Below are positions 23,480 to 60,600 of a DNA stretch of 64,000 bases, in pieces. A program made the translations under genes and the position numbers. Origin of the DNA: Hormiphora californensis (Eukaryota > Animalia > Ctenophora); NCBI GenBank assembly GCA_020137815.1, contig CM035356.1, positions 4,960,001 to 5,024,000 on the forward strand. The letters run 5' to 3'. Position 1 is the first letter of the stretch. Every line of letters begins with the position of its first letter. The notes under the pieces were generated by a model. That model made no database searches. It was not told the origin of the DNA and saw only the letters and a program-made list of their open reading frames with translations.

Positions 23480-23620
23480 GACACCCCGATCTCTCTCAGG
23501 AGGGATATTAACCCAGAAATGTCCTATAACACCCCGATCTCTCTCAGGAGGGATATTGACCCAGAAATGTCCTATAACACCCCGATCTCTCTCAGGAGGG
23601 ATATTGATCCTGAAATGTCA
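23480..23620 (+). repeat. ~48-bp tandem repeat (3 copies) spanning the acceptor and ATG of the zinc-finger gene
   Basis: ACACCCCGATCTCTCTCAG|GAGGGATATTGACCCAGAAATGTC repeated; the last copy carries the ATG at 23615. Confidence 0.8.
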
Positions 23621-25752
23621 GAAATGGATGATATCTTAAGCGGAGTATATGATCTCCTAATGAAGGCCTACCCTACTGAAGGTAATATAACACACATACC
23701 GAGAGGCAAACACACTGACAGTGTCCACTGCAAAAGTCGGCCGGGTTTTCTCAACAAATGAAAGTCCGTCTGTTTGTCATGGAAGTGGAAACACATCCAT
23801 CCCAATGAAATGGACGTAACGCGCGACGTCCTTGAGTGTGATTGGAGTTGAAGTTGCGCGCAGCCTTGTCACGTGACTTACTGGAACATATTCCCCAAAA
23901 CAGCAACTTTTCTCTCTTGGCCACCTGGAGGACAACAATTCAGTTCCTATTTCTTATATCCACAACATCCCTTCCAGCAGGTACATCTGGAGGTATTGGT
24001 GCTCAATCATGTCTCGTTGATTCCATGTTAACGAGTTCTCAACTGATTCGACTCCGACTGAAGGCCCCTGGTCTTCTGATCATGCCCCCGGAGACTTCCA
24101 TAAAAAAGGAAGAGTTGTCGGATGATGGACTCATTCATGGAGGGGCCAAGAGGGCAAGGATAGAAAATAGGTAACTCTTGATTGTGCCATTGAGACTTGA
24201 TAACCATCCCACAAGATACTTGTTCGACCCTGTGTCACCACGCACGGGAAACTCTTTGATGTAAAGGAGGGTTAGAAAATAACATACAAGGGTTACTGTC
24301 ATTGCAAGTGCCCCACGTCCTATCTAATAATACTAATTCCTCCCCTTTTCTCTCAGACTACCCTCACCAGAGGAATTGATTGTGGTTGAGCCTGCAACTA
24401 TCCTTCCAAAGACGCCAGTACAACACCCAGGGAACACTGTGCCTCCCAATGTTGTGGCCGTGAATGTTCACAATGAAATACCACATATCCACCACCTTAT
24501 GGAACCACTCACACCCCTGGTAGGTCGCCTGAAACTGTGGCCGCGGTGCTGGATAACCAACAAGAAGTCAATCTCCCCCTAAAATATCGATTTGATTGTT
24601 TTACAATACATACTACCAAGCTGGGTATTTTGCCGATTTAACCGTTATATCCTTAATCGGGTTATGATGAGGTTATGATTAAAGATATAAAATCCAAGCT
24701 ATACCTACACGATTGCAATATCCTCCCTTGTTCCAGGAAGAATACCGGAGAAGAATTCAGTTCCGAAGGTGTGGGGAGTGCGCTGCGATTCTACCAACTA
24801 ACGGACACCTTGCAACTCACCTGAAATCGGACCACCCTGCTCTGAAAATGTGGAAGTGCATGGCCCATACTACATGCCCACTGGTTAGTGCCGGGAAGAG
24901 AGAGAATGCTCATGAGACTTACTAAATGATGATTCATAATGTTCCTTCAGTTGACACAAGAATTACAAAATAATCACTCATAATTCAGGTGTTTACTAAA
25001 TAATGACTCATAATTCAGGTGTTTACTAAATGATGACATAATTCAGGTGTTAATTCAGGTGTTTACTAAATGATGACTCAATATTCAGGTGTTTACTGAC
25101 ATGAGGATAATGAAAGCTCACGTGTACGAGATGCATATAAAGGAATGTCCCCTGTGTAAATGTCCCTTTGAAGAGACCTCATTAGCACGACATATCATCA
25201 CCACACATGCTGCTCTAACCACCTGCCCCTTCTGTTCGGCTCAGGTTTGTGTTAGACTAGAATGTTTAGACTCTCTAAATCAAAATTAGGATATTCAGAT
25301 TCTTTGAGTTATCTTTCTTTCTCTCTTTTTCCCTTTCTATCACTCTTTATCTCCCCCTCTCTCTCTCCCTCTCTCTCCCCCTCCTCTCTCATTCTCTCCC
25401 TCCCTCTCCCTCCCTCTCCCTTTCTATCACTCTTTATCTCTCTCTCTCCCACTCTCTCTCTCTCTCTCTCTCCAGTCTTCCTCCTTCTCTCTCTCTCCCT
25501 CCCTCCCTCTCTCTCCCCCTCATCTCTCATTCCCTCCCTCCTCTCTCTTTGCAGTACCACGACCAGCACGATCTAATGGTCCACGTCAAAACTGCCCACG
25601 AAGTATCAACGAGACGGAAACAAGGTGGTAAACCGGACAAACAGACAGTGCCAACATTTCCTGTGGCTGTAGCAGGAAATGTAGCGGGACCCCGTGTTAG
25701 GACCAATACGGAGTCTACCATCAGTGTCAAAAGTGAAACTACCTCCCCGTGA
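23615..25752 (+). CDS. C2H2 zinc-finger protein, 6 exons (23615-23681, 23981-24170, 24357-24519, 24737-24883, 25089-25244, 25555-25752)
   Basis: all junctions GT-AG and phase-consistent; fingers CGEC...HLKSDH, CMAHTTC...HVYEMH, CPLC...HIITTH, CPFC...HVKTAH. Confidence 0.8.
24975..25098 (+). repeat. ~30-bp tandem repeat spanning the exon-5 acceptor of the zinc-finger gene
   Basis: TAATTCAG|GTGTTTACT in 4-5 copies; the last copy is the in-frame acceptor at 25089. Confidence 0.85.
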
Positions 25753-26067
25753 TAGCAACTGGCCCGGGCGGGTGAAACTACCTCCCCGTGATAGCAACTG
25801 ACCCGGGCGGGTGGAAATCATTGATATGCATTATGCTGTCAGGCCAATGCTCTGACCACAGTTCTCGGGCGCTCCGAGAATGGGTCAGGCCAATGCTCTG
25901 ACAGTTGATATGGCATTGTGGTACCTTCTCTCGGCTCCCTGTGTAGCACGGAACAAGCTGTCAAGTCCCCTTGGAATGAACATTGAACAATTAGTGCAAC
26001 GCGACATTTGGAGCGACATGAAAGAATTACCATATATGAAAACTCTATTACGTCATCCCGAACTTTT

Positions 26068-32872
<6,805 letters not shown>

Positions 32873-33027
32873 GAACTTTTTGCCCATCTACCCAATATAT
32901 CTACTACACAATATTTTGTACCCACAATGTTTTTTAATAACCGCTAAATCATATATAGCTGTAAATTATTCCTTCCCCAACCCCGTTCATTATCCTTTCT
33001 TCTCAATGTAGTATGGTTTGGTGAGAC

Positions 33028-40797
<7,770 letters not shown>

Positions 40798-40834
40798 GCA
40801 GTAGTATTTAGAGACTGTATAGTCTGATGTACTG

Positions 40835-40901: not shown

Positions 40902-41216
40902 TTATAGTCTTGTGTATATTATTTATTGCCAATCACATTTTAGAGAGAGAGTTGTACAGTATATGAGATCAGTATTTTTATACCATGTGCATGTGTAAAT
41001 ATAAGTCAGCTTTTTACCGTGTTTTGTGTGTAGAGTTATTATGTAACTTATATATTGTGAACAACTGATGTTTCTCTCCTTCCCCCAGCTTGAATGAATT
41101 ATGCAGTCCCAAAAATGTGTACAAATTGTACACTTTAATTCCCCTCCCCAGTATCTGTTTAAGGGACCAACTTACAAAAGTATACCCGGGTAATATCCTC
41201 ATTCAAACTCTATCTA

Positions 41217-44200
41217 CTAGATCATGATTCATACCCCCTACCTTTCTATCTAGATATCATGATTCATACCCCCTACCTTTCTATCTAGATATCATGATTC
41301 ATACCCCCTACCTTTCTATCTAGATATCATGATCCATACCCCCTACCTTTCTATCTAGATATCATGATCCATACCCCCTATCTTTCTATCTAGATATCAT
41401 GATTCATACCCCCTACCTTTCTATCTAGATATCATGATTCATACCCCCTACCTTTCTATCTAGATACCATGATTCATACCCCCTATCTTTCTATCTAGAT
41501 ATCATGATTCATACCCCCTACCTTTCTATCTAGATATCATGATCCATACCCCCTACCTTTCTATCTAGATACCATGATTCATACCCCCTACCTTTCTATC
41601 TAGATATCATGATTCATACCCCCTATCTTTCTATCTAGATATCATGATTCATACCCCCTACCTTTCTATCTAGATATCATGATCCATACCCCCTACCTTT
41701 CTATCTAGATACCATGATTCATACCCCCTACCTTTCTATCTAGATATCATGATCCATACCCCCTACCTTTCTATCTAGATATCATGATTCATACCCCCTA
41801 CCTTTCTATCTAGATATCATGATTCATACCCCTACCTTTCTATCTAGATATCATGATTCATACCCCCTACCTTTCTATCTAGATATCATGATTCATACCC
41901 CCTACCTTTCTATCTAGATATCATGATTCATACCCCCTACCTTTCTATCTAGATATCATGATTCATACCCCTACCTTTCTATCTAGATATCATGATTCAT
42001 ACCCCCTACCTTTCTATCTAGATATCATGATTCATACCCCCTACCTTTCTATCTAGATATCATGATTCATACCCCCTACCTTTCTATCTAGATATCATGA
42101 TTCATACCCCCTATCTTTCTATCTAGATATCATGATTCATACCCCCTACCTTTCTATCTAGATATCATGATTCATACCCCCTACCTTTCTATCTAGATAT
42201 CATGATTCATACCCCCTACCTTTCTATCTAGATATCATGATTCATACCCCCTACCTTTCTATCTAGATATCATGATTCATACCCCCTACCTTTCTATCTA
42301 GATATCATGATTCATACCCCCTACCTTTCTATCTAGATATCATGATTCATACCCCCTACCTTTCTATCTAGATATCATGATTCATACCCCCTACCTTTCT
42401 ATCTAGATATCATGATTCATACCCCCTACCTTTCTATCTAGATATCATGATTCATACCCCCTATCTTTCTATCTAGATATCATGATTCATACCCCCTATC
42501 TTTCTATCTAGATATCATGATTCATACCCCCTATCTTTCTTCGATATAATGATATGTAATCCCCATGTTTAACAGAGATCATGATTATCATGACAGAAGG
42601 AAAAGTACTACTTCTATATAGATTATACTAGATTACTACTACTTAGTCCAGTTCCCCGCATTATACCCCATCTTATCTAGAACTCTATCCGATTACCCCT
42701 ACTTTACTATCTAGATATCATGATCATCCCCTATCTTCTATCTAGATATGATTCATACCCCTAAAATTTCTATCTAGATACATGATTCATACCCTATTCC
42801 ATCTAGAATCATGATCAACCCCACCTTTCATTAGATACAGATTCATACCCTCCCTACCTTCTATTACTACATATCATGACTCATACCCCTACGTTGCTAT
42901 CTAGATATCAGATTCATCCGCCTACTTCTATCTAGATATCATGATTCATACCCCCACCCCTTTTTATTAGATCATATTCAACCCCTACCTTTTTATCTAG
43001 ATACATGATCATACCCCCTTTCTTTCTATCTAGATATCATGATTCATACCCCCTATCCTTTCTATCTAGATATCATGATTCATACCCCCTACCTTTCTAT
43101 CTAGATATCATGATTCATACCCCCTATCTTTCTATCTAGATATCATGATTCATACCCCCTACCTTTCTATCTAGATATCATGATTCATACCCCCTACCTT
43201 TCTATCTAGATATCATGATTCATACCCCCCTACCTTTCTATCTAGATATCATGATTCATACCCCCTACCTTTCTATCTAGATATCATGATTCATACCCCC
43301 TATCTTTCTATCTAGATATCATGATTCATACCCCCTACCTTTCTATCTAGATATCATGATTCATACCCCCTATCTTTCTATCTAGATATCATGATTCATA
43401 CCCCCTACCTTTCTATCTAGATATCATGATTCATACCCCCTACCTTTCTATCTAGATATCATGATTCATACCCCCTATCTTTCTATCTAGATATCATGAT
43501 TCATACCCCCTACCTTTCTATCTAGATATCATGATTCATACCCCCTACCTTTCTATCTAGATATCATGATTCATACCCCCTACCTTTCTATCTAGATATC
43601 ATGATTCATACCCCCTACTTTCTATCTAGATATCATGATTCATACCCCCTATCTTTCTATCTAGATATCATGATTCATACCCCCTATCTTTCTATCTAGA
43701 TATCATGATTCATACCCCCTATCTTTCTATCTAGATATCATGATTCATACCCCCTACCTTTCTATCTAGATATCATGATTCATACCCCCCTATCTTTCTA
43801 TCTAGATATCATGATTCATACCCCCTACCTTTCTATCTAGATATCATGATTCATACCCCCTACCTCTCTATCTAGATATCATGATTCATACCCCCTACCT
43901 TTCTATCTAGATATCATGATTCATACCCCCTACCTTTCTATCTAGATATCATGATTCATACCCCCTACCTTTCTATCTAGATATCATGATTCATACCCCC
44001 TACCTTTCTATCTAGATATCATGATTCATACCCCCTACCTTTCTATCTAGATACCATGATTCATACCCCCCTACCTTCTATGTAGATATCATGATTCATA
44101 CCCCCTATCTTTTCTATCTAGATATCATGATTCATACCCCCTATCTTTCTATCTAGATATCATGATTCATACCCCCTACCTTTCTATCTAGATATCATGA

Positions 44201-44973
44201 TTCATACCCCCTACCTTTCTATCTAGATACCATGATTCATACCCCCTACCTTTCTATCTAGATATCATGATTCATACCCCCTACCTTTCTATCTAGATAT
44301 CATGATTCATACCCCCTACCTTTCTATCTAGATATCATGATTCATACCCCCTACCTTTCTATCTAGATATCATGATTCATACCCCCTACCTTTCTATCTA
44401 GATATCATGATTCATACCCCCTACCTTTCTATCTAGATATCATGATTCATACCCCCTACCTTTCTATCTAGATATCATGATTCATACCCCCTACCTTTCT
44501 ATCTAGATCATGATTCATACCCCCTATCTTTCTATCTAGATATCATGATTCATACCCCCTACCTTTCTATCTTGATATCATGATTCATACCCCCTATCTT
44601 TCTATCTAGATATCATGATTCATACCCCCTACCTTTCTATCTAGATATCATGATTCATACCCCCTACCTTTCTATCTAGATATCATGATTCATACCCCCT
44701 ACCTTTCTATCTAGATATCATGATTCATACCCCCTATCTTTCTATCTAGATATCATGATTCATACCCCCTACCTTTCTATCTAGATATCATGATTCATAC
44801 CCCCTACCTTTCTATCTAGATATCATGATTCATTATACCCCCTATCTTTCTATCTAGATATCATGATTCATACCCCCTACCTTTCTATCTAGATATCATG
44901 ATTCATACCCCCTACCTTTCTATCTAGATATCATGATTCATACCCCCTATCCTTTCTATCTAGATATCATGAT
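41217..44973 (+). repeat. 35-bp minisatellite (~107 copies) containing the WDR13 acceptor and start codon
   Basis: unit TAGATATCATGATTCATACCCCCTACCTTTCTATC; the last copy runs directly into ATG ATC CCC TCA... at 44969. Confidence 0.95.
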
Positions 44974-45832
44974 CCCCTCAATAAGTGCGTTGGAACAGCA
45001 GAATATACAGAAGATACTAGCGCTAGATGCTCGGCTACAACAACAACAGGAATGCAACGCCGAAATCTGAAGACACTTTACATGAGGCGCAGGTATATTA
45101 ATTGGCGGGAATCATCGTAAACCTCTGGTTATGATGTCAATTAACTTTTCTTTGATAAATGATAATTGTTAATTGACATTTGCATTACGATTAACATATT
45201 ATGTTAATTCTCTTTCCCATGATTCATGACAAGACTCTCGATTTATGAAGGAAAGCAACACTCAGTTCCCCCTTCCCCCTTCTTATTACTACTACTTAGG
45301 TCCCAGTTGCTACGTGAGAAGTGTGATAGAGATCGGTATTACCAGACTAGATCGAAGCTACTGTCTGTGAAGTACCCGGGCGTCAAGACACTGGGTAAGA
45401 TATTAATTAGGAGATGGGATGGGACAGAGGTATACTGTATAATAGGGAGATGTATCTCTCTAGATGGGTGTTGGTGGTAATTGCGCCTTTGTAAGACGGG
45501 ATAAACGTATTATAGCGAGGGGAGAGAACTGAGAAAACGTACCTGTTATATCTTCAAAGAAAGTGGCTCTGTAAAACATTTCTTTGAATCTTCCAGCCAA
45601 CTCAAATAATGTAGCGCTTGACTATTCTTGAGTCTCATGATTGATAATAGTTCTTGTGTTTATTGGACAAGTTAGACTCGCTGGATATTATTGGATGAAA
45701 CCAGATATTTCGGTGTTTAACACCATCATCAGTAGTAGCTAAAAATAGAACATATTACGAATAGGAATCAAAATCGAAATTCATGTCAAAACAATCACGT
45801 ACTCTCTATCTCTCTCACTCTCACTCTCTATA

Positions 45833-45884
<52 letters not shown>

Positions 45885-46609
45885 TCTCACTCTCACTCAC
45901 TCACTCTCTCTACTCAACTCACAAACTCTATCTCTCACTCTCTCCCCCTCTCTCTCACTCATTCTCACATCGGATCAGATATACATAAATTCAGATTGTA
46001 CTATACACAGAGCTATGACGAGTACTCTAGGACTTTTTTTTTCTTTTTTTTTTCTCGCGACCTCTCCGCGTCCTTAGTGTCACCGAAGGCTAGCGCTATC
46101 TCTAGGACTTATCAACTATTACTGACTAGGAAGCCTAGAGCACTCTCACACTCTTTCTTGTTGTTCAGAGTAGGTTTCAGTTGTTGTATGAAATCAGCTT
46201 CACTAATCTTTCTCTGTATAGTTCTCGAAAGATTCGATTTCAGTATTTCCAAACTTAAAATAGGGGTACTACCCTCGTGTGTCTCACTATAAAGAGACAC
46301 ACGAGGGTAGTACCCCTATTTTAAGTTTGGAAATACTGAAATCGAATCTTTCGAGAACTATACAGAGAAAGATTAGTGAAGCTGATTTCATACAACAACT
46401 GAAACCTACTCTGAACAACAAGAAAGAGTGTGAGAGTGCTCTAGGCTTCCTAGTCAGTAATAGTTGATAAGTCCTAGAGTACTCGTCATAGCTCTGTGTA
46501 TAGTACAATCTGAATTTATGTATATCTGATCCGATGTGAGAATGAGTGAGAGAGAGGGGGAGAGAGTGAGAGATAGAGTTTGTGAGTTGAGTAGAGAGAG
46601 TGAGTGAGT

Positions 46610-46671
<62 letters not shown>

Positions 46672-47032
46672 TATAGAGAGTGAGAGTGAGAGAGATAGAG
46701 AGTACGTGATTGTTTTGACATGAATTTCGATTTTGATTCCTATTCCTAATATGTTCTATTTTTAGCTACTACTGATGATGGTGTTAAACACCGAAATATC
46801 TGGTTTCATCCAATAATATCCAGCGAGTCTAACTTGTCCAATAAACACAAGAACTATTTTCCAGCCAACTGCTCGGTCTTTTATACTAAACTTTACAAGA
46901 TTACATCGAGCCTTCACTAGATTACATTCCTTCCAACTTATGTTTTTCTGGCCTTGTTCCCCCTGGCTCCCCCTCTCGCCGCTATCCCTTCGCGTTCTAG
47001 GGTTAGAGCATTTCTCTCTAGATCAAGTTATC

Positions 47033-47098
<66 letters not shown>

Positions 47099-47128
47099 GC
47101 TCTCTCTCTCTCTAGTTAACATAACAAA

Positions 47129-47162
<34 letters not shown>

Positions 47163-50086
47163 AGTTAACATAACAATCTCTCTCTCACTCTCTAGACAAC
47201 AGATCAAGTTCCCGTACGGAAAGTATGCACAGTAGAACGTGCAGTATGGACAGCCTCGATATTATTGCAGTAGGCAAGCCAACACCGGGTCATCTTACGC
47301 CGCAGCACCTTACACCTAATATCAGGTACAGCCTAGCAGTTTAGTGTGGTGGTGGTTGTTATGTTCTAACCCTCCCTTTACATTTGTGTGGGGCGCCCGA
47401 AACACAGTATAGCCAGGCAAGGTGGTGGTGGGTGTAAATAAAAATCTTAAATCCGTGAGATGAAGTTGTCGACAGGACTGGTATCCGACATGCTTCCCTA
47501 AATAATAAAAGTTTTTTAGGGACGCCTTTTAATAATTTTATCGGTTACATTCCCATCATTCATTTTTATCTTTTTAATTTTACCCTTTATCTAGGAAGAC
47601 GTCCCCACGACATCCCGCAGTGAGCGATAAGAATAGCTATGCTTTCACTGACATGCCTCACATATTCGATCAACATTCAAAGTAAGCCCCACAGATCATG
47701 CGTTAAATAATGTTCCCAATTCCTGGCAATTCATTAACTCACTTACCACTGTGTATTCAAACAGTTCCCCTTCTCTTCAGGGCAGTTCGAGTTGTTAGGT
47801 TTGCCCACAACAGTTGTACTATGCTGGCATGCTGCTCCGATGATTTCACCATCTCTCTATGTTCCCTTACCCCTTACGCTGTTCTCAACCTTCTCCAGGG
47901 ACATACCGGACCTGTCAGGTATAGGGATTGCTCCTTCATAAAACATTATTTTGCTCCTTCATAAAACTACCCAATTACCTCTAATTTTCTCAGAGATATG
48001 GATTGGTCTATTGATAATAGTATGATCCTCTCTGGATCGTCTGATGGAACGGTTCGATTGTGGAACTGTGACCAGGGCAAATGTATACGGGTTGTCACTA
48101 ATAATAGCCCTATTTCTGCTGTTCGCTTCCAGGTGATTTATAGTGGCAAGAAAGGGAAAACGGCTAAAGTATAGCATTTATAGTATGTACATATTTAGTA
48201 ATATTTAGTAATATTGATATTTAGTTAATGTTTTATAGTTGTTTGGGGTGCTGAGAAATCAGTTAGTTAAATATTTAACTGTGGCTACTAGCCAGAATTG
48301 TAGTAGCCAGAGTTGTAGTAGCCAGAGCTGTAGTGGCCAGAGAAGTGGGTCACCTGTTTGGAGTGCTGAGAAATATTTTATTTCAGCCAATGAACAACAA
48401 TGTATGCGTAGCTGGAGACGAGGATGGCGTTTTGAAGGGATACAACCTGAGCACTGGAAAACAACTTTCAGGTACAAAATGATTATTAACATTTGCTATA
48501 GAAACTTTCCTTGTGTTTTAATAACATGTTTCAGGATCACGTGAGAAGATAAGTAACAGTTTGACCTGCCTGGAGTTCGGGCCTAACAGCAGTATCGTGT
48601 GGGCTAGCAACAATAAAGGACAGATATTCGCTATCAGTGTCCATCCTTTGGTAGGTGGTGATGTTTGGTAATGAAATTACCCCTCCGGAAAAGCTCATAT
48701 ATGCAATATAATAACAGGGGTGACTTCGTAACCAATGGTAATGTCGTTAATCACAGTCGGACCCTAACTGGAACCCCGATTTACCGGTTCGACTGTATAG
48801 TGTATAGTATACACTATACAGTTGAACCGGTAAATATATATAATACACTGTATACCCCATTTGTCGAGCTAGCTTAGCACCTACCAAAGTTTTTGAAATA
48901 TCCAGACTTTCCGTAATTATCATCGTACGAAATGTCTCTATTCCCAATTATTATCGCCTCCCAATTTGTGACATTATGTAACCATGTCCCTTCTTAACTT
49001 TAAACTCTCAACCACAGACGTGTCAGATGAAAAAGATGAAGGGAAGTGGGGTTCCTGGGGGAGGGTCTATTGTCAGTTTGGCGGTCCGTGCAGGACACCC
49101 AACCCCCCTTCTTATTGCATCCTCTACATCTGATTACATTTTCATGTTTACCATTGAAAGTAAGTCCCCCTAGTTTGTTTGTTTGTGTTACAAATAGTTA
49201 TTGAATTGTCGGGGGACCATTGTCATAAATTCGAAAGTTCGCGATATATCGACACTCCATAGTTCCCCTACTTTCTAATTTTCTCATACAAGACTGTCCT
49301 CGACTCGCGGCCCTCTATCTTTCCCACTTCACTCACACAACTACAATTTCAGAGGAGGTTCTACTCCTTCAAAGAAAGTGTGCAGTACGACTAAATGGAC
49401 TTCCAATTAGGAGCGTGTTCTGCCCCATAGCAACCGCAAATAGGGTAGGTAATCGAAAAACAGAAAGTAGAAGTACCCCAAATTGGTAACAATTAACCGA
49501 ACTATTCCCTCGATTTGCACTAGTTTGTGCTTTAGCTGACCAGCTATTTCCCAGGGTGCATTCACGGTATCTGGTTGTGCCGATGGATCAGTCCTGGTGT
49601 TCGATATGGAGAAGGGCAAGGCCGTTAACAAACTCCAGGGACATTCCTGGTAAGTTGATATATATATTTGGAAGCATTTGGAATCACTTTGTGGTGTGAG
49701 TTTGTGGTGTGGGGGTTGGGGGTTTGGGGGGTTGGTATAGTGAGTTCTAATCATTATATAGGGCTTGTCAGCCAAATGTTATCGCTGAAACGACCTCATA
49801 CTATTCTGTACTATCAGTTGATTGTTTGAGTAAAACAGTGCCGGAATAATGGACTGGCGGACTGCACATTACCGGAACATGTTCAATTATCATCCAGTGA
49901 CCACTTGAATCGCATAATAAATATGTCTGTTACTACTTTAATTTGAGCGTCAATCAGTACTTAATTTTCTCTTCTTTTCTTCTATCGAAGGAGCTGGGAA
50001 GTATTTATTAATGTTTGCTGTTGCCCTGAATCACGCGGAGTACAGCTATTTCTGGTTATCATTTCCTCTCTCTCTCTCTCTATATA

Positions 50087-50123
<37 letters not shown>

Positions 50124-50817
50124 GAGGCATAAACTCTGGCCACTGGCGCGTTATTTCAGATAACTTTCTCCCAGCGCGCCGCTGGGAGAAGTTAGCTGGA
50201 GTTTATCCGCCGCTGGCGGATAAACTGGTTTAAATCACGACGACGATCCCGAGGCGGAGCCGAGGGAGAGGCGGAGGGGTTTAAACCTATAACGTGCCAG
50301 TGGTCAGAGTTTATGGGTTATATACCCTGCTTTAGTTGTTTATTTCAAGTATTACACACCAACAAGAGAGAGAACACTAATCAAAACACACAAAGAGAAC
50401 TGAGAAATAGTTAAAAACACGTCACAATTGAGTGTACACTGTTTGGTAACAGTTACTAAGCAGTTGCTAAGGAAAGAGAGTGAAAGAAATAGCCTGATAA
50501 GGGGCATGTCACAAATAACACAGAGAAAGAGATAGTGAGACAAAAGGGGAGATAAAGAGAGAGTAATTGACGGAATGTGTCCTTTCTTTCTCTCCAATGT
50601 AGTGTGTAAGTGTTGCACATAGTGTTCCCTCTGTATTTTAGTAAGAACTGATCATTTACACACACTTTGAATGTTACGTAGGAGTTAAAAATAAATAACC
50701 TGCCAGTGGGAAATAATCTGCCGCTGGACTGGCTGTTTACTGAGAGCGCGCTAGTGGGACTTCTCGCCACTGGCGCATTATTTAAGTTAGCAGGGTATAT
50801 ATATATATATATATATA

Positions 50818-50848
<31 letters not shown>

Positions 50849-50982
50849 CTCTCTCTATATATCTCTCTTAGTAAATGTATGTTTCTCTCCCTAGCTGCCT
50901 ATAGAGTACTACAATTCAGTCTTGCTTATACCTACCAATACACATAGACATCGGTCTCCCTCTCTCACTATCTCTCTCACTA

Positions 50983-51030
<48 letters not shown>

Positions 51031-51280
51031 CCTCTACCTCTTCCTCCTTCCATCTGTTTGTATTACTGATTTCCATCTTCTGTCAAGCTTTTCGACTATC
51101 TTAGCCTGACGTTTTAAAGGACCACTTACTGACCACAAACACGCAGAAGAGATAGGCGATAGGAGAGAGAGCAGAGGCGAGGGGAGGAGAAGAAGAGCAA
51201 ACTAAAAGAGAATCTACCATGAGAGCAATAGAGAATAGAAGGAAATATAGGAAATACATATACGACTGAAAGCTCCTATA

Positions 51281-51337
<57 letters not shown>

Positions 51338-53829
51338 CTGTGCAGTTTGCGTATTTTCTCATTTACATTTATCCTCCCTCTCATCCGACTGTCTGTATAT
51401 ATTCCCGTATTTAACTGTCCCAAGCCACAGAGAGATAGGAAAGTCACGTGACTGCAACAACTCACGTGATCATCATCATCATCATGGCCTCCTCTTTGCC
51501 GTCCTCTCTTCAATGCCAGGACTCTGCTCTCTCGCCCGCCCTCAATCTTGTCTCCAGTTTTTCCAATCTTCTCTCCCAGCCCACTGCAGACCACGCCCTT
51601 GCTCCGTTCCGTATTCCCCAACTTCTCCACCTCAACTCCACTGCTAACACCTCCTCGGATGAAATGGAAACTGACGTTAGACGGCCCCCAAAACGAACCA
51701 AGCCACTTCTTCTCGACATGGCCACTGGTGTTTCACCTGACTCCCCTGCTCCCCGGGTAACAGGATCCAAGACACACTTTGTGTCCACTCCCCGGCTCAG
51801 CAGGAGGCTTCTCAATGCAGGCCTCCTCAGCAGTAGTAGCGTGGAGGGTCCCCCAGGAGGAGGGGAGACAGTTGGAAGTGTTGAGATGGCACCAGCTGAA
51901 CGATCTTCATCTTTACCAGGACAACAACAACAACCGCTCCTACCAGCCACAACAACGAGATCTCTTTCAACAAGCCGCGTACCACCGGGTGTTGAGTTCC
52001 ATTTCTCACCCACAATGGATGCGCGCCCTGCATCTCCCATCCCCATGGTAACAATCTCACCTCCTTTGGGTGGGAGTCTGGAGGACGTAGCAGAACAACT
52101 CAACCCCCAATCACCGGCTGTTGATGGCACCCACCACCCTGTCATGGAGGAATCAAATAGCATCTTCTCAGTTACTCCGGATCCTAAGATTCTCCAACGA
52201 TTAATTGATATCTCCGTAGCCCAGCCGGTGCTGCCACCCGCGTTTGAAACAGGATCTTTCCAGGTGATATCTGATCCGGATAACATCACTGGGGATCAGG
52301 TGACACCATCCCAGCCGGTACTTCAAAGTTTCTCCGTTACCTCTCCACGAGTTTCAAAGAAGGTAACCATTAGCAACAACAAACAGCAACAGGTGAAATA
52401 ATGACATGTGACAAATCGATGGGTAAACTTGCTAGTTCAGCACAAGATATTTCTGTGCCCATCCCCAACAACATGATAAGAAAGTGCGGATCAAGCCGAG
52501 ATATATCCTCCTCAGCACCTCAACAGCAGACACTCCGAGATATGATGGGACCACACAGGACTCACCATGTTTCCGCACAGGATGTCACCATGACAACGAA
52601 ACTATCGAGTTATGATGAAGTTCCCCCTCCAAATCAACACAGGGGTTCAATACAAAGTGAGAATATCCTCCACAAGTCTAACGAGGCTGATGATAAGTGT
52701 ACCAAAGTGGATATCCTCCATAAATCTAAAGTGGAGGACGATCCGGGATGCGACACGTTCTCTCTTGACTCCTCGATATACAGCGGTATGGGCAAGCACT
52801 CCTCGACAATTTCAAGGAACCTGAACAACTACGCCAGTACTCTTCCAAAGGGTCCTGTCCAGAAGCAGCTCAACAAAAGCCTGACTAGTCTGAGGACTGG
52901 GATGTGTGGAAATGATGAAACTATCTACGAGAAGATTGATAGGAATGATGTTTCAAAGAAAACCAAGGATAACATTTGTACAACATTGAACCTCCCACCG
53001 CCTCTCCCACCCCCATCTGCCATCTATCTGTCCGCCCCTACCTGGTGTTCGTGCCGGAGATGCTGTGATGGAGACACAGGGTTTGTGTGTTGTCTCTCTC
53101 TACCGGAGCTTATCTTCCTCTCTAACGGATCCCAGTGTGTTACCAAGAGCAGTCTCTTCTGTGAGGTTGTCCTCAACAAGGCAGGGTTGAGGTTGAGCGA
53201 TTGGCTGGGTAAGAAGACGCTAAGTGGCTCTACGGTCCAGAAGAACAACACGTACCGACATCTGGCGTACAACTCCTTCGTCCAGTTGGTATCGAGTAAT
53301 GTGAGGAAGCAGTGGACAGAGAAAGTGTTACCTTCATGTGTTGTCACGGCAATAAGACAGATTTATCCCTCCGCAAACAACCGATACAACGGACCAGTTC
53401 GATCAAAATGAGATAGAGAGATTAGGTAAGGAGCATATTTTGTGTTGGAGAGCTTGCTGTGTACTATATATCTGTCCATGTAGCTACGGGGGATTACCTA
53501 CAACTCTGGCACATGCAACTCTGGCTCATAGAAGTGTGATCTGATTAGGTCACCGCTAGGGGGGGGGGATGACATACCCTAAATCGCATGCGTTATCTGA
53601 CACACATGTTATCTGTCACAGATGCTATCTGTCACACATGTTATCTATCACACATTAACAATCTATCACACATGTTATCTGTCACACATTATCTTAATCT
53701 ATCACACATTAACAATCTATCCCCTGCAGCCCGGTATACGCGGTGTGTTTGAGTTACGATGAGAACGTTCTGATTAGTGCTGACTCCAGTGGAACTGTCA
53801 TTGTTTGGCAGAAAAAGGAACCCGCATAA
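44969..53829 (+). CDS. WDR13: WD repeat-containing protein 13, multi-exon; small apparent frameshifts in early exons are probably consensus errors
   Basis: IQKILALDAR...LYMRRRSQLLRE, HIFDQH..AVRVVRFAH...LACCSDD, DWSIDN...SGSSDGTVRLW, VSGCADGSVLVFD...AVNKLQGHS and final exon PVYAVCLSYDENVLISADSSGTVIVW all match WDR13. Confidence 0.9.
45700..45736 (-). ncRNA. Minimal type I hammerhead ribozyme, inverted copy
   Basis: reverse complement of 46768-46804. Confidence 0.75.
46036..46099 (-). mobile_element. Short poly(A)-tailed retroposed insert in one Penelope arm
   Basis: poly-T tract plus ~47 unique bp, flanked by the 11-bp direct repeat CTCTAGGACTT; absent from the other arm. Confidence 0.7.
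46768..46804 (+). ncRNA. Minimal type I hammerhead ribozyme (Penelope-associated)
   Basis: ACTA-CTGATGA-T-GGTG TTAAA CACC-GAAA-TATC-TGGT: conserved core, 4-bp stem II, short stem I, minimal stem III. Confidence 0.75.
50124..50795. mobile_element. Non-autonomous element inserted in a (TA)n microsatellite, possibly Crypton-type
   Basis: (TA)n on both sides; split inverted repeats CATAAACTCTGGCCACTGGC / GCCAGTGGTCAGAGTTTATG and TATACCCTGCT / AGCAGGGTATA; CCGAGGCGGAGCCGAGG motif at 50249. Confidence 0.5.
51484..52401 (+). CDS. Ser/Pro-rich, probably disordered ORF nested in the last WDR13 intron; likely the N-terminal half of the next ORF
   Basis: ~305 open codons of non-repetitive sequence; the stop overlaps the next ATG (TAATG). 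Confidence 0.6.
   Translation: MASSLPSSLQCQDSALSPALNLVSSFSNLLSQPTADHALAPFRIPQLLHLNSTANTSSDEMETDVRRPPKRTKPLLLDMATGVSPDSPAPRVTGSKTHFVSTPRLSRRLLNAGLLSSSSVEGPPGGGETVGSVEMAPAERSSSLPGQQQQPLLPATTTRSLSTSRVPPGVEFHFSPTMDARPASPIPMVTISPPLGGSLEDVAEQLNPQSPAVDGTHHPVMEESNSIFSVTPDPKILQRLIDISVAQPVLPPAFETGSFQVISDPDNITGDQVTPSQPVLQSFSVTSPRVSKKVTISNNKQQQVK
52401..53411 (+). CDS. Protein with a C-terminal P2X7 cytoplasmic ballast / Nanor-like Zn-binding domain, nested in a WDR13 intron
   Basis: WCSCRRC...CC...CVTKSSLFCEVVLN...NNTYRHLAYNSF...VLPSCVVTAIRQIYPS...YNG parallels P2X7 WCQCG.C...CC...CITTS.LF..LVL...RHCAY...LPSCC...IR..FP....YSG. Confidence 0.8.
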   Translation: MTCDKSMGKLASSAQDISVPIPNNMIRKCGSSRDISSSAPQQQTLRDMMGPHRTHHVSAQDVTMTTKLSSYDEVPPPNQHRGSIQSENILHKSNEADDKCTKVDILHKSKVEDDPGCDTFSLDSSIYSGMGKHSSTISRNLNNYASTLPKGPVQKQLNKSLTSLRTGMCGNDETIYEKIDRNDVSKKTKDNICTTLNLPPPLPPPSAIYLSAPTWCSCRRCCDGDTGFVCCLSLPELIFLSNGSQCVTKSSLFCEVVLNKAGLRLSDWLGKKTLSGSTVQKNNTYRHLAYNSFVQLVSSNVRKQWTEKVLPSCVVTAIRQIYPSANNRYNGPVRSK

Positions 53830-54792
53830 CATGTGAGAAATAGCTGTCAGAGCATTGTTCTCACGGAGAAATAGACAGTTTGCTTCTGAACACTACACTA
53901 TTGACAAAAGGATTTAAACTGTGTTTATGGGTTTTTTCATTTCGATCAACGATACCTTTTAGTTTTTGAGAACTAGGCGAAAATGTTTTATTGAAGTGTT
54001 ATGATAATAATAATAAAGACTGAGCTCTAAAATTTAATTGCTTCTGTAATGATGATGTATTATGTGTGTTACAGTGCTGCTTGTAGTGGGAATACGGTGT
54101 CTGAATAATACGGTATTTGACCATTACGGTTTCTGAAATACATATGTATTTGAAATACATATATATTTCGGTGTCACGTGTTTTCAATCTGGCGCTCTGA
54201 TTGGTCTCGTCTTACCGTTTTTCACTGATACCGTGTTGAACCGATACTGTATTCTCACTACAAGCACCCATGTTACTGTTTTGAATTTGAAATTTCGACA
54301 TTGTTAACTGGTTTTATCATTTGGTTCGGACATGTCTTGTCTTGTTGGTAGGCGGTAAATGTTAACCAGATCTGATAGAATACGTACATGCATAACTCAG
54401 TCATTTCTTTTGCAAATTGGTTAAGAAATGGCTGAGGTATGGGCAAAACCGTGCGTCTTGTTACTCAACAATTCATCTCGGTTGTCATTGTGAATAAAGC
54501 ATGCTGATCTCGTGACAGAGGGTGTATCTCTGATGGAAACTAATAAAATGCAACTCACTTAAGACAGCTCACAGCCGACAGACAGGCGAAGAAGAAAAAA
54601 ATGGTGAAATTTTTTAAAGCTGTCTGGCGCCGCGCAAAACTATGCCGCGCAACAAAATCGTTGCGCGGCCCCTTTTCTTGAGCGCGTGCTGTAAAATTAT
54701 CATGTTTAAAAAAATAATAAAATGCATTTTTGAAATTTTTTTTGAAAAGTGTTGCTGGGTGTTTCGTGAGTGCTGACAAACGGTTTTGTAGC

Positions 54793-54851
54793 GTTAGGGC
54801 AAGAGTAGGGTTAGGGTTAGGGTTGGGGTTTGGGTTTGGGTTTGGGTTAGG
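54793..54851 (+). repeat. Interstitial telomere-like (TTAGGG/TTTGGG)n tract, probably part of a TE remnant
   Basis: GTTAGGG...GGGTTAGGGTTAGGGTTGGGGTTTGGG; neighbouring motif AGCACGCACCTRTAAACAGGCC also occurs at ~7465. Confidence 0.7.
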
Positions 54852-55364
54852 TCTTAACATTTCCTACCAGATAAACTTTGAATTAGCGAAAACGGTTAGA
54901 GCCATTTTAGTGAATCAACTTTTTTGGCAGCACGCACCTATAAACAGGCCACGAAACACCTAAATCGTAACGGCGGCGCCCCTACCAACTTTGCTTTGCT
55001 TTTAAACTTTTGAACTCGCCGAAAAGCGTTAAGCGGTGTTCCACTTGAAAGGCGTTCCATTTGAAAGGCGCTGTATCATCCCGCATTGCATTTGACCTGT
55101 CGCACATGCCATTTGCCGAATGTTCCATTAGCATGTTATCAAATATTCGCCTTGTGCACTGATCATCCTCGTTAGATGGGCCTTTAACCGTTGCAAATTG
55201 CAATTCACGGGCCTTGATCATTCAGCATTTGCATTCCCACAGACTTGATGCGCTATTAGAACACTTCATTTAGTTTCGCCTTAGTCATTCCGCGTTTTGT
55301 TCGATTCTCCCTCGCAATTGATAGCTGCATGTCATTCACGGCACGCCATTTCACAGGATCACTC

Positions 55365-57213
55365 ATGAGCGAAGAAGTCAGCACACAGCCCCCCATTGCA
55401 AGTATAATTCGCAAGTTCGAGAAACTCCACCAGATGAAACCATGTCAATTGAAGGAACTTTCCACTGAGAGACCGGTCACCGCTCCACCATCCCTACCCT
55501 CCCAGAAGAAGGGCGTGGTAAAGAGGTGAGTAGCCCTGTATAGTCGACTTTTTTTAACTAATAATAAGGGACAGGGGGGTTCAAAACACACATAATTTCA
55601 GACGTACATATCTCTGGTTCAGACGTACATATCTCTGGTTCCTGATGAGATGAAATTTGGAGATTAGGAAGAACTTGGCATGATCTTCCTAACCTCCAAA
55701 TTTCAAGTCTCTACCTCATCAGGAACCTGTAGTTTAGGAATACTACTGGTCCTCTGATTGATATATTTTCCCCATGTATTGCTTTATTATCTCGTTATGT
55801 TGTTATCTCGTTCATTCAGGAGGGATGATCTGATTACAAAGTTGTGTGAGGAAGTGTGCTACCTGAATAACCAACTGCAGTGTACTGATGCGTGCCACAA
55901 CAATAGGTAAATGTGTGTGTGAGTATTGTGTGAGTATAGACATACTACTGAGTGTTATTCATTTACCAATGTTTACTTAAGACATTACTCAGTAGAGCAA
56001 TACTGCTGCATTGCACCTGCAGCTTACCAATTGTAGCATCTTTATTCTGAAACTAATTAAATCTCTAATTAAATCTCTAATAAACTCTCTAATTATCCAG
56101 GAATTACAATGACTCAGAAACCCTGAGTCGGGCAATGTTCAGGGATAACTATTTTATAATATCTGGGGCAGTGTCACCCTCATTAGAAGCAGTTACTGAT
56201 CAGGTGAGAGAGATATATGTCCTCCACCACCACCCCACCCCCACCCCAACCCCCACCTCAACCCCCGCCCCGATATACCTCATTATATCAGCCTGATATT
56301 ACATTATAATCACACACCAACACCCCCACCAACACCCCCCCCCCCATCACCACCCCGCCCCGATATACCTCATTATCATCCTGATATTACATTATATCAT
56401 GCGTGGTTCCTCCATTATATGACACGTGGTTCCTCTATAGGTTGATTCCAACAACATGCTGACTGTCCAGGAGAAACCTGTTCAAATGAAAAAGACAATT
56501 GACTCTGATATTTCGTAAGTTTCGTTATTGGTGCATTACAGTAGTGCTAACAACAACAAAAATAGTACTGCAGTAGTGATGCAATAGTGATGCAGTATAG
56601 TAGTGGTCATGTGGTATTAGTTCCAGGTTGGGGCCGGTGTCCAAGGTTACACAAATCGCAGGTTGTTATGACAACCATTTCTCTCTCTCTTCCTGAAATA
56701 GGGTGTAGGAGGGGGGGGGGGGGGCTACTCTAGAAATTTGAGAGTTACCGAAGGGAGCATATAATTTGCCACTAAATTTATTCTACGGGGATTTCTGCAA
56801 TCGCGGCCCGTGCAGAATTTATGAGGCAAAGAGAAGAAAAATAATTTTGTATGGTTCAAAATTATTAGCTACTCTTCCAATATTTTTAGCACTATAATTC
56901 TCCCAACAGGTCCCATACCAGGTCACCAATCAACCAGCTGAGCTGTTCACCGGGTGCATCTCTCGTTACCATGGAGACCGTTCTGAATTTACCAAGCAGC
57001 GAGGGAGGGTTAACTACGAGTGTTGGCAACTACCACCTCAGGGAACCTCAACTAACTTCCTCTCTATCAGATATTGACAATTGTTTCGCAGACAACGTTT
57101 ATCGAACTTCCAGCCGGGTAGGCGTGTTTTGTGTTTGTATTTCAGATAGTGCAGTACTGCGTCATATGGGCCACCCGCACAGCACCGCCCACGACCCGGT
57201 CCAAGACGCCTGA
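55365..57213 (+). CDS. Uncharacterised 5-exon gene, ~242 aa (55365-55525, 55820-55906, 56101-56203, 56441-56514, 56910-57213)
   Basis: all four introns GT-AG with matching phases (2,2,0,2); no recognisable domain. Confidence 0.7.
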
Positions 57214-57635
57214 AAAATATTCAGCGGACTGCGTCTTAAACGTCGTGGACCGCGTCGTAAGGAAGGTTTTATGCGGACGACCAACATGACGGAGCTGATA
57301 CATCAAAAAACGAATTATAAATCTCGATTCCATTGTTAGATGAATCTGGCAGGGTTGCCATCACTCAGATGGAACTAGATCGATCTGCAATAATATCACC
57401 ATGCATGTACTGGATATGTTCACAAGCATGATATGCTCATAACTTATATATGAGTCATAAGATTAGTTTGATACACAGTAGGCCCTTGTTAGGCAACAAT
57501 ATAGAGAGAGAGGAAGTGAGAATAGTCGAGTAAATCATCCTGTGTCTGTTTATCTCTGTTTATTCCTTATGAAATCTGAGCAAGAATTGCATAGGAACGA
57601 AAATCTAAAAAACGTATCTTCTGCTTGTCAATGTT

Positions 57636-60600
57636 TTATTTACAGGGCGTTTTTAAACACAACATCATTCTTGAACTACATGAACATGTATCTCCCATCT
57701 CTTTCTCAATTCTCCATTTGTGCTTGCCGCCTTTTGCAGCACTTGTAACTGATTTCTTCTTCTTTTGGCCGGCACCTTTAGTATCATAATCTTTTGCAGC
57801 ACTTGTAACTGATTTCTTCTTCTTTTGGCAGGCACCTTTAGTATCTTTAATGCCTTTTGCAGCACTTGTAACTGATTTCTTCTTCTGGCAGTGTCATGAA
57901 GTACCTTTAATGCCTTTTGCAGCACTTGTAACTGATTTCTTCTTCTTTTGGCCGGTACCTTTAGTAATATAGTACCTTTAATATAGTACCTTTAAATCTT
58001 TAGTAGCAGTTTGGTACATATCTAGATATACTCATGTGCAAAAGAAAAGAGGTAAATATACTTGATGACTAGCTCCTATCACCTGGACCTTGTGAGTGGA
58101 GAGAGTTCCTAGTTAATCTATCTACAGAGAGTTCCTACAGAGTGAATACAGAGGGCGAGCGGGCCAACACCAAACGTTAAGATAGGAAATATCCTGTAGT
58201 TTGGGGAGTGTTGGATGGCCCTCATAACTAGGTGTCCTCTTCCCCAAGACGAGAGCGGCGCACTCATCGCCTCGGCGAAAACACGCTCTCGCTTTCGCGC
58301 TTGTTCCGCTCTCTCGCTTGAACGCTCTCGCTCTCTCTTTTCTCTATACGCCTCTCTCGCGCTTCTCTCGTCGGTCAATCTCTCTCTATCTCTGTCTTTA
58401 TCGCTGTTCGATCGCTGTTCGTTCTCGATTCTCTCGCTATCTTCTATCTCCTTCTATTTAGCGTTTATCACGATCATCTATCCTTTCTCGTTTTCTCTAT
58501 CGTATCCCTTTTGTCCAATCGCTCTCATCTTCCTTCTCTCTTATTAACCTCTCTTATTCTCTTTCTCTATCTTGGGGCCTGTCCCTGATATTTGTCAGGA
58601 GACTGCATAGATCCTCTTTTCGTTGTACCCCCCTCAAGCAACAAGCCTCGTTGTTTCAAAAAAACTGTTTTTGGGTTGGGTTTTTTTTCGTTTCTTTTCC
58701 CTTTTTAGAAACGGGTAACTTTGTATATTGGGGGAAGTGCGGAGAGAGATAAGCCCCCCCCCCCCCACTGGTCCGGGAAGGGGGTAACTCAGTCCGGAAG
58801 TTTGTTTGGGTTTTTTTTATGAACCAACCCCACCGGGGGGGGCCCAAACCTTTTTTTGTGGGGATGAGGGAAAAGCACAATTTTTTTTTGTAGGGGCCCG
58901 AAAAAAAAATCAAAAAAATCAAAAAAATCCTAAAAAAATTTCCAAATTTGTCATCTGTCCGTTTTGGTTTTTCAAACTCCTCCCACATTTTTTGGCTAGC
59001 CCCCCTGAAATTTGTACACGGGTCCCCGGGGACCAAGGGGATGTAATACGGGCTCAGTTTTTGACCCGATCTTTACAGATGACGAAAACGGGGGTGACGT
59101 CATTGCAAAAAAAACTTCTTTTTAAAAAACCTTTTCTAAGGCCCGAAAAGGGGTTTAAAATCAAAAAACTAACCAATAGGGGGGAAAAGAGAATCTTTTG
59201 AACTTCATTTTACTTGATATCATTTCCCTAACCCCCCAATTTTTAAAAGGGTCGTAAATCCGTGGGGAAAAGTTAAAAAATGCCAAAAAATACGTTTTTT
59301 TTTCACCTACCACCCAAAACCCTTATCCAATCGATATAAATTTGGCCCGTTATGTAAATTTTAACCCCCTTTGCCGGGGGTTTCCCGGAAAAGGGGTTTG
59401 GCAAGATTAAATGACCGGATTTCTTAAAATTTCCCACAATTTTGGAATTTTTCGTCGTTTTTTTTTTGGGCGACATATAACGGAACGAGGGGAAATTTTC
59501 AATATTTTAAAATTTTACATGCGCGCAAAAAAGAATTACCACCGGGCGGGGGGCGAAAAAAGCAGCGCTTTTTTGGGGAAATTCGCGCGTTACAGAAAAA
59601 TGTTTTTCCCGCCTCGCCCAAAATTGAAATTTGGGCCATTTTGCTCTAGGAAACCCAAAATTTTTTTTTTAAAAAATCAAACACAAAGTCACCGGGTTAT
59701 ATGACAAAAATTCCATTTACCACCAGGGGTTCCCCAGCAAAGGTCTTATACAAAAAAAATAAAAAAAAGTTTACTGCTGTCGGGAACTTCTTTGGTCCTT
59801 CTCAGGTCCTAGGGGGCGCTCGAGGGTCCCATTGGGCCCTTTTAAAAGGCCTTAGATTTTTTTATTTATTTATTTTACCTTCCCCGTCCCCACGATCCTA
59901 ACTAGAACAAGTCTTACTAACCGGGTCCCCATATTTTTTTTGGGCCGGAGGCCAAAATTTTCCCCCCCTTTTGGCCATTTTTTTTCCCGGGTCAATTAGT
60001 TTTATAAAGTTTTAAGAAGTTTTAACTTAAAATTTAAAAGTCTAAAAAAGGTCGATTTTAAATTATTGATTTACACTTGTGCTATACCCGTGTTAGTATT
60101 TAAAAATTTTGAAAAAAAAATCCCGGGTTTTGAACCCGGGGCCTTTTGCGTGTCAATATATGCCAATAACCAAACCCGGGGGGGAAATGAAAAGACTGCG
60201 ATTAGAGATTAATGTCGCCGCTTAATGGCCCGGGGGGGGGAAAGGGCCCATTCGGCTTTTTCTTTTTTTTGGCCTCCTTTTTGCCTCCCTTTTTTTTCCC
60301 GGCATGAGGGGGAATAATAGGGGATATTCGGCCGAAAAAAGAAATTTCATCAGAAAAAGCTTGGGCACACCCGAATTTTTGGGTGTTTCCAACTAGGATT
60401 TGGAAAGTTTGGTTAGATAACTTTAAAGGGTAGAACCAAAAAAATTTTTTTCGAGTGCAGGGAAATCTCCACCGTAGGGGTTGTGGCCATGCCAAGGGGG
60501 ACCTCAAATAGCAATTTGAGCTCTCAAAATCGAATTATATTTTGCTAAGCGCTTGAAAAAAAGAACTGAAAATATTTTTTTCATCTTAAAAAAACTTTTA

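Follow-up and report, generated by a model that had tools for sequence, protein, structure and literature searches.

What places unrelated tandem repeats across exon-intron borders in the genome of Hormiphora californensis, and which of their many copies could serve as splice sites? An earlier note on the stretch of DNA analyzed here (64 kb, hereafter the window) had listed nine arrays straddling splice sites and proposed that such junctions are systematically amplified. All nine arrays were located where the note had put them. In eight, a head-to-tail unit combines exon bases with intron bases from a single border, as claimed; the exception is 57728-57965. The eight comprise five donor arrays in ARMC9 and three acceptor arrays, two in a zinc-finger gene and one in WDR13.

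Junction-spanning arrays in three modeled genes

Exon models were built for four genes, and all of their junction 16-mers were screened for nearby copies. The genes and repeats are as follows.

22119..25752, plus strand: C2H2-type zinc-finger gene, hand model with weak C2H2 Pfam matches
23473..23619, plus strand: 48-bp array of three copies over a zinc-finger acceptor, sites after 23499, 23547 and 23595
24963..25098, plus strand: 30-bp array over the intron-5 acceptor of the zinc-finger gene, five sites
25733..25813, plus strand: 39-bp duplication (two copies) over the zinc-finger stop codon, no splice site
33028..40797, plus strand: ARMC9, 12 exons, 779 aa with first-copy donors
33417..33501, plus strand: exact 40-bp duplication (two copies) at the intron-2 donor, 26 exon and 14 intron bases, 5-nt end homology
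36377..36478, plus strand: 26-bp array of four copies at the intron-7 donor, 20 exon and 6 intron bases
36854..38120, plus strand: 30-bp array of 42 copies at the intron-8 donor
38640..38981, plus strand: 32-bp array of nine copies at the intron-9 donor, first copy set apart by 81 bp
39603..40205, plus strand: irregular G-rich array with 13 copies of the intron-11 donor
41209..44973, plus strand: 35-bp array of ~108 copies, acceptor just 5' of the WDR13 start codon
44964..53829, plus strand: WDR13, 12 coding exons, start codon at 44969
55365-57289: gene model with an open frame

Of the 33 donors and 33 acceptors in the 16-mer screen, 5 and 2, respectively, have duplicates nearby; together with the first WDR13 acceptor at 44963, which was screened separately and is also duplicated, this amounts to 8 of 67 junctions. 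Donor copies numbered 2 at 33442, 4 at 36396, 42 at 36869, 9 at 38655 and 13 at 39651, and acceptor copies 3 at 23595, 5 at 25088 and 95-99 intact among ~108 units at 44963. All five duplicated donors belong to the 11 of ARMC9. The same screen detected no duplicates among the 22 donors of the other three genes, the other 22 WDR13 junctions or the 10 junctions of the gene at 55365-57289, for which searches of two pieces gave no Pfam support. Splice dinucleotides are kept in many array copies, and these copies score like the working site. The array units are unrelated in sequence to one another.

The note had also remarked that most units contain AG/GT. This motif is indeed present in 6 of the 8 units (all five donors, one of three acceptors), but it occurs in 14 of 28 unduplicated donors as well (hand count; P=0.049).

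Two further arrays, one of them among the original nine, were set apart from the junction cases.

57729..57966, minus strand: 60-bp array of four copies, junction reading without support
4187-4675, minus strand: 53-bp array of nine copies, candidate ninth junction case, excluded from all counts

Scored with an acceptor matrix derived from the real acceptors of this window (median 7.6, minimum -0.5), the minus-strand AG/GT sites of the 60-bp array reached only 0.1 to -7.6, and its in-array sites have just 33-44% pyrimidine. Its minus-strand translation is a 20-aa repeat rich in lysine that matched no Pfam family, and a degenerate repeat, of lysine-rich coding sequence or of the 3' flank, is the likelier reading. 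In the 53-bp array donors score 3.8-4.4 and the first copy below 3; it gave no Pfam match, and its recurring exon-part variant is non-synonymous.

Terminal copies as candidate authentic splice sites

When built from first-copy donors, ARMC9 is 94% identical, across 389 aligned residues, to a model from P. bachei and shows no insertion relative to its homologues at any of the five array junctions. A contig of run X8 (a probable RNA run) representing a diverged ARMC9 orthologue is colinear at the exon 7/8 junction, according to hand translation of loose ends. Later copies close the reading frame in four of the five donor arrays; in the intron-11 array the copy at +39 likewise leaves the frame open.

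For the zinc-finger gene, exons from 23596 onward give one open frame, and their joining to the first exon (22119-22211) is uncertain; 16 of the 20 listed exon differences fall at third codon positions. All three acceptors of the 48-bp array are in frame, and its unit end coincides with a candidate start codon at 23615. Among the five acceptor sites of the 30-bp array, only the last (25088) leaves the frame open.

The WDR13 model shows 73% identity to P0102 over 413 columns; P0002 and P0003 were of no help for this model. A related cluster includes a Bolinopsis WDR13-like sequence. The first exon contains two 1-bp frame errors, which probably stem from the assembly. The 35-bp unit consists of 25 intron and 10 exon bases and includes the start codon, 84 array copies form 10-codon start-to-stop mini-frames, and the stretch 42540-43000 is visibly noisy. 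Frame is irrelevant for this acceptor because it lies 5 nt ahead of the start codon. Two scans of metagenomes for ARMC9 or WDR13 loci of ctenophores confirmed none of 93 and none of 397 pattern matches, respectively.

The claim that the first donor or last acceptor copy is the in-frame one therefore holds uniquely for five of the eight arrays (ARMC9 introns 2, 7, 8 and 9, and acceptor 25088) and fails for ARMC9 intron 11 (+39 copy), the 48-bp array (three acceptors in frame) and WDR13 (pre-start). The terminal copy as authentic site agrees with protein colinearity at the five ARMC9 donors and the WDR13 start, and with frame in those five arrays. Homology, together with the human F7 and amphioxus cases discussed below, suggests that splicing would use the donor lying furthest upstream and the acceptor next to the exon.

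A probable origin as short DNA duplications filtered by selection

The eight arrays are 'mirage' minisatellites, and with moderate confidence we consider them ordinary short DNA duplications that would survive as the spliceosome keeps the exon-adjacent copy and the protein stays unchanged. Segments of 25-50 bp would be duplicated by slippage or end-joining, often between direct repeats of 3-8 nt. Duplications lying wholly within exons would mostly be purged. By computed geometry, about one in five tolerated duplications would cover a junction, because introns here are short (median ~190 bp with arrays collapsed). A copied border would be neutral only with the extra material on the intron side, which may account for the first-donor/last-acceptor polarity. 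Once seeded, an array would vary in length like any VNTR, as is partly shown below. Such arrays are likely harmless here.

Unit ends lie 12-26 nt inside exons and 6-27 nt inside introns, and none coincides with a splice site. End homologies of 3-5 nt were measured from fractional copies of four two-or-three-copy repeats, and homologies of 5 and 8 nt were seen by eye in the 30-bp and 35-bp arrays, respectively. The absence of unit ends at splice sites and the short end homologies argue for DNA slippage and selection over RNA templating. The earlier note had offered two interpretations, an RNA-templated or splicing-coupled process or selection tolerating junction-spanning duplications; the latter fits best and accounts for the direction of growth, and RNA-templated seeding is disfavored. 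In the RNA-templated scenario, reverse transcription of pre-mRNA or lariats, or reverse splicing, would copy junctions back into the gene. The junction association itself and a LINE reverse transcriptase gene at 915-3770 are compatible with it, although such genes are common in animal genomes. However, the units mix exon and intron sequence and neither start nor stop at a splice site, and the end homologies and the stop-codon duplication (25733..25813), which has the geometry of the junction arrays but sits at a non-splicing boundary, indicate DNA events, leaving write-back highly improbable.

Junction overlap compared with chance

Ten more complex repeats lie wholly within introns of the same genes, indicating that duplication is common here. 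Junction overlap was compared with a null comprising geometry and the selection filter only, with arrays collapsed to one unit and the 10 junctions of 55365-57289 included. These tests are post hoc, in one window picked as striking, with a hand-picked event list from which microsatellite-like repeats were excluded. Of 18 genic repeats, 8 span a junction where 3.1 were expected (P=0.004), and with periods restricted to at least 20 the figures are 8 of 12 and 2.7 (P=0.0009); adding three CT/GA-rich repeats gave 8 of 21 against 3.8 (P=0.02). In ARMC9 the ratio was 5 of 6 against 1.06 expected (P=0.0007), and without ARMC9 it was 3 of 12 against 2.0 (P=0.32). More than six copies were present in 4 of 8 junction arrays and 0 of 10 intronic ones (P=0.02; rank test P=0.008), and the four largest complex arrays of the modeled genes are all junction arrays.

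Systematic amplification is thus not shown, because the excess rests on one gene, ARMC9, and 32 further junctions of WDR13 and 55365-57289 are unduplicated. We regard the ARMC9 cluster as a local excess, given that the window was chosen for being striking.

A rather unlikely alternative is that exon borders are true hot spots, either by seeding more duplications or by letting arrays grow and persist better through repeated sequence exchange with the coding copy, which is conserved. Conceivable causes of duplication at exon borders are polymerase pausing, R-loops or nucleosome edges. This alternative would fit the 2.6- to 3-fold surplus relative to the filter null, the 5 of 11 ARMC9 donors, the junction position of the four largest arrays and the dispersal of first-copy-type units deep inside the 30-bp array. 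It would also fit the recurring exon-part variants of the two large ARMC9 arrays, all three of which are synonymous in the exon frame (~0.3 expected each). However, the excess disappears without ARMC9, all 22 donors outside that gene are unduplicated, and the window was selected for this pattern; the synonymous signal comprises three sites only and is absent from the irregular intron-11 array, where two recurring exon-part variants are non-synonymous. Ordinary duplication filtered by selection remains our preferred reading.

Arrays and their length variation in short reads

Three arrays (36377, 23473 and 24963) were compared with short-read contigs, and all three are present in run X2, the best-matching sample group. 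For the 26-bp array, X2 contigs stop at 36406 and restart at 36449 with raised depth between, and X5 contigs, which end at 36403 and 36454, hint at two or more copies. The 48-bp array is contained in contigs of X2 and X6; its depth in X5 is ~10-40x that of the flank and very different in X6, which is a hint only, as depth is not copy number. At the 30-bp zinc-finger array, an X2 contig skips from 25010 to 25051 and reveals a 40-bp shorter allele (27 letters fit both sides), with which loose ends in X5 and X6 are compatible. Length instability among alleles is thereby seen at 25010-25051. In the zinc-finger stretch X8 gave no match and X7 only a chance piece of 40 letters, and neither counts as evidence.

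These data bear on the notion that errors of long-read assembly lengthened the long arrays or even produced them. Noisy stretches (42540-43000 and 58600-62200) and the pair of frame errors in the first WDR13 exon would be in keeping with it, and the read comparison covers three of the eight junction arrays. Against it, all three compared arrays are present in short-read contigs and the unit variants are recurrent and patterned, so that we give error very little credence as an overall explanation; the exact copy numbers of 36854-38120 and 41209-44973 may change.

Arrays could also be regulatory, with extra sites diverting a share of transcripts to frameshift and decay, or short WDR13 upstream reading frames acting, such that repeat length tunes expression. 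Copies with intact signals scoring like the working site, the 84 WDR13 mini-frames and the minor use of near copies in human 6-16 and CBS, as described in the available text of PMC1557585, point this way. On the other hand, the units are mutually unrelated, length varies between runs, and young homogenized arrays should have intact signals anyway; in amphioxus, RT-PCR gave regular splicing according to the available part of PMC3087553. A regulatory role is accordingly judged very unlikely, and selectively tolerated duplication is retained.

Relation to known junction-spanning repeats

The note knew of no description of such repeats as a genome-wide system. At the gene level such repeats have precedents in amphioxus and human genes, and our literature search found neither a genome-wide test nor a ctenophore report of junction-spanning minisatellites. 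In the accessible text of PMC3087553 and PMC3902484, amphioxus 'mirages' are described for Adh3, the globins BflGb6 and BflGb9, troponin C and PGBD5, with undisturbed splicing and unstable length (PMC3087553). As here, they are tandem border duplications at 5' and 3' ends, several per locus, with units of tens of bases (10-72 bp in Adh3), unstable length and splice signals in many copies. Regular splicing was reported there and would be predicted here. The present arrays differ in occurring in a ctenophore, in reaching up to ~100 copies, in affecting five donors of one gene and in having two units that reach a start codon.

Human junction-spanning VNTRs, as listed in the part of PMC1557585 available, occur in F7 intron 7 (37 bp, 5-9 copies), 6-16 intron 2, CBS intron 13, LMNB2 and PDGF intron 4. 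They share a border-spanning first unit followed by identical pseudo-donors; in F7 only the most upstream donor is used, and dominance of that site was attributed to oriented scanning. The human cases described there comprise one donor-side array per gene, whereas here a single gene has five and three more arrays lie on the acceptor side. PMC10078293 addresses repeat length and splicing in humans, and its available text contains no junction-seeding test.

The Rogers model (available text of PMC4974935) derives intron gain from tandem duplication of an AGGT-containing exon segment. Tandem duplication with AG/GT (6 of 8 units) is shared, but no new intron arises here and the units contain intron sequence. 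Such intron gain was rejected for these loci: each array supplies one intron end, and the other end is unique, unduplicated sequence.

Implications

Overall, this is a known repeat type, here extended to ctenophores and unusually dense in ARMC9. Its five donor ladders offer a dense natural test of splice-site choice, and WDR13 places ~100 near-identical acceptors ahead of a start codon in an animal in which spliced-leader trans-splicing is common (as stated in the available portion of PMC8527503). Junction arrays can also mislead gene prediction and break assemblies. It is conceivable, though we think it improbable, that pleurobrachiid exon borders are real hot spots where minisatellites arise and grow, the conserved coding copy repeatedly re-seeding or correcting its array. 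In that case mirages would form a class of mutations linked to splicing and acting genome-wide, one that extends to the earliest-branching animals and takes in acceptors used for trans-splicing or placed at start codons. Were a genome-wide excess to be shown, repeat birth would be tied to gene structure, which would bear on intron lengthening or origin.

Gene models of the window

Four genes were modelled, the first three of which carry tandem repeats whose unit spans an exon-intron border (junction arrays):

33028-40797: ARMC9, 12 exons, 779 aa, matching Pfam ARMC9 families and aligned with ten homologues
44964-53829: WDR13, 73% identical to its homologue P0102
23596-25752: open frame of a zinc-finger gene with only weak C2H2 Pfam matches
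55365-57289: open frame of a gene for which a profile search returned no family match

An ARMC9 exon shares 96% identity with a Pleurobrachia bachei gene model, which marks the animal as a Pleurobrachia-like ctenophore. The WDR13 start codon at 44969 aligns with the first residue of P0102, and a related cluster includes a Bolinopsis 'WDR13-like' protein. Among the listed differences between the window and sequencing runs, third codon positions account for 11 of 13 in ARMC9 exons 6-8 and for 16 of 20 in the zinc-finger exons, which independently supports both reading frames.

Census of duplicated junctions

The 16-mer at each of the 66 modelled junctions was searched for nearby copies. These were found for 5/33 donors, every one in ARMC9 (2, 4, 42, 9 and 13 copies), and for 2/33 acceptors, both in the zinc-finger gene, while an eighth duplicated junction is the acceptor preceding the WDR13 start codon. 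Acceptor copy numbers are 3, 5 and 95-99; noisy stretches make the size of the last array, that of WDR13, approximate. Eight of the nine splice-site arrays claimed in the earlier note were thereby recovered, but 57728-57965 was rejected as an acceptor array, as its minus-strand AG|GT sites score no higher than the weakest real acceptors and have no pyrimidine tract; its sequence reads as a degenerate lysine-rich repeat. As to the claim that most units contain AG|GT, it occurs in 5/5 duplicated donors, compared with 14/28 other donors (P = 0.049), and in 1/3 acceptors.

A 53-bp x9 array at 4187-4675 may be a minus-strand donor repeat, with a putative gene model and a weak donor. Repeats or decayed duplications without the AG adjoin acceptors at 33609-33701, 47100-47195, 53592-53721, 56053-56095 and 56390-56435, where they occupy the branch-point and pyrimidine-tract zone; by eye, the sequence at 33609-33701 looks like an old acceptor duplication.

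Contigs across the arrays

Contigs from sequencing runs were checked for three arrays, the 26-bp array at the ARMC9 intron-7 donor and the zinc-finger 48-bp and 30-bp acceptor arrays. In run X2, contigs stop at 36406 and restart at 36449; these positions are set off from the ends of the 26-bp array by one word length, and depth between them is two- to threefold higher. Contigs also break at the 48-bp array, where depth is approximately doubled. The 30-bp acceptor array is 40 bp shorter in one X2 contig, a form that is compatible with loose ends in runs X5 and X6. Over the 48-bp array, X5 depth reaches ~10-40x that of the flank with no such rise in X6, a hint of length variation, given that depth is not equal to copy number. 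Assembly error as the source of the arrays is very improbable. Run X2 may derive from the same sample as the window. X5 and X6 are listed as one sample, but probably do not represent a single individual because their alleles differ at many places within 23300-25300. In ARMC9 intron 6, a short insertion of high copy number (35997-36062) shows very high contig depth and many loose ends in both X2 and X5.

Polarity and choice of splice copy

The earlier note had proposed that the first donor and the last acceptor copies are the in-frame ones. When first-copy donors are used, ARMC9 shows no insertion relative to homologues at any of its five array junctions, and later copies close the frame at introns 2, 7, 8 and 9; likewise, only the last copy of the 30-bp acceptor array leaves the frame open. 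The rule does not extend to ARMC9 intron 11, where a copy at +39 also leaves the frame open, to the 48-bp array, where 3/3 acceptors are in frame, or to WDR13, where frame is uninformative because the acceptor lies 5 nt upstream of the start codon. Splicing to an earlier WDR13 acceptor copy would put upstream frames of ten codons into the transcript; 84 such frames are intact. The WDR13 acceptor may be a candidate trans-splice acceptor, since at least 56% of long cDNA reads from Hormiphora carry spliced leaders (PMC8527503). As transcript-like evidence, one contig of a diverged ARMC9 orthologue from X8, a probable RNA run, is colinear over exons 7/8 (loose ends translated by hand) and shows conserved protein length, not copy choice in this animal. 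Array copies score similarly to working splice sites, so the suggested problem of near-identical decoys for the spliceosome is real.

Enrichment and origin

Eighteen complex repeats (period >=10) in the four genes were hand-picked from Tandem Repeats Finder output, leaving out the stop-codon duplication at 25733; 8 lie at junctions and 10 within introns. In the null model, one unit was placed randomly so that it either fell entirely inside a collapsed intron or crossed a border, using 34 introns (median 190 bp, including a tentative WDR13 5' intron) with repeats and nested frames masked. Junction repeats exceeded expectation over all genes (8/18 versus 3.1, P = 0.004) and for periods >=20 (8/12 versus 2.7, P = 0.0009). 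ARMC9 alone contributed 5/6 against 1.06 expected, whereas the other three genes showed no clear excess (3/12 versus 2.0, P = 0.32). The cluster is therefore real but local, the window having been selected for it; the systematic pattern once proposed is not evident across genes.

Unit ends fall well within exon and intron, none at the splice site, and share homologies of 3-8 nt, with none in the 26-bp array. A 39-bp duplication across the zinc-finger stop codon has the same geometry with no splice site involved. For these reasons we consider it probable that duplication at the DNA level would create border-spanning copies, that a selective filter would retain only those duplications that do not alter the mRNA, and that VNTR turnover would follow. 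Of the two origins offered earlier, tolerated duplication is thus favored, and RNA templating is highly unlikely given the unit ends and homologies. Biased seeding at junctions, or exchange between exon and array, is less likely, with some hints of a process beyond the filter: junction arrays are longer (>6 copies in 4/8 versus 0/10 intronic), and 3/3 recurring exon-part variants in the ARMC9 30-bp and 32-bp arrays (introns 8 and 9) are synonymous; however, the irregular intron-11 array carries 2 recurring non-synonymous variants. A regulatory role for the arrays is improbable.

Other elements

Further elements were observed in the window:

328-3770: element with an intact 951-aa open frame, presumably LINE-like from its endonuclease/reverse-transcriptase-like motifs
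7656-21170: five tandem intronless BTB/POZ genes (~530 aa each), N-terminus conserved, C-terminus visibly diverged, 2/5 copies interrupted
16200-18500: fold-back/palindromic insertion, self-inverted over 1.3 kb (96%)
26060-32880: nested fold-back element in the interval separating the zinc-finger gene from ARMC9, containing many copies of a short palindromic motif; its inverted arms (~1.9 kb) are 98.8% identical, and it has further inverted ends
45700-46900: fold-back/palindromic insertion in WDR13 intron 2, arms 335-380 bp (99%)
51484-53411: a back-to-back pair of open frames (305 and 336 aa) nested in WDR13 intron 11, possibly one nested gene or mobile element; the second frame has a match to the P2RX7 C-terminal cysteine-rich family (E=4e-17)

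Relation to known repeats

Similar 'mirages', in which both intron-exon borders are tandemly duplicated, occur in amphioxus globins and Adh3, where they are described as length-unstable, leaving splicing undisturbed and of unclear mechanism (PMC3087553); PGBD5 and troponin C are added in PMC3902484. Border duplication is common to the lancelet and window arrays. Among identical donors in human F7, the most upstream alone is used, and 6-16, CBS, LMNB2 and PDGF are named as comparable cases (PMC1557585). Such arrays have thus been described at gene level, but our literature searches, with most subscription journals outside their coverage, returned no genome-wide test and no ctenophore case. The observation is real, mostly as first described, and represents a dense, fresh instance of an already known repeat type.
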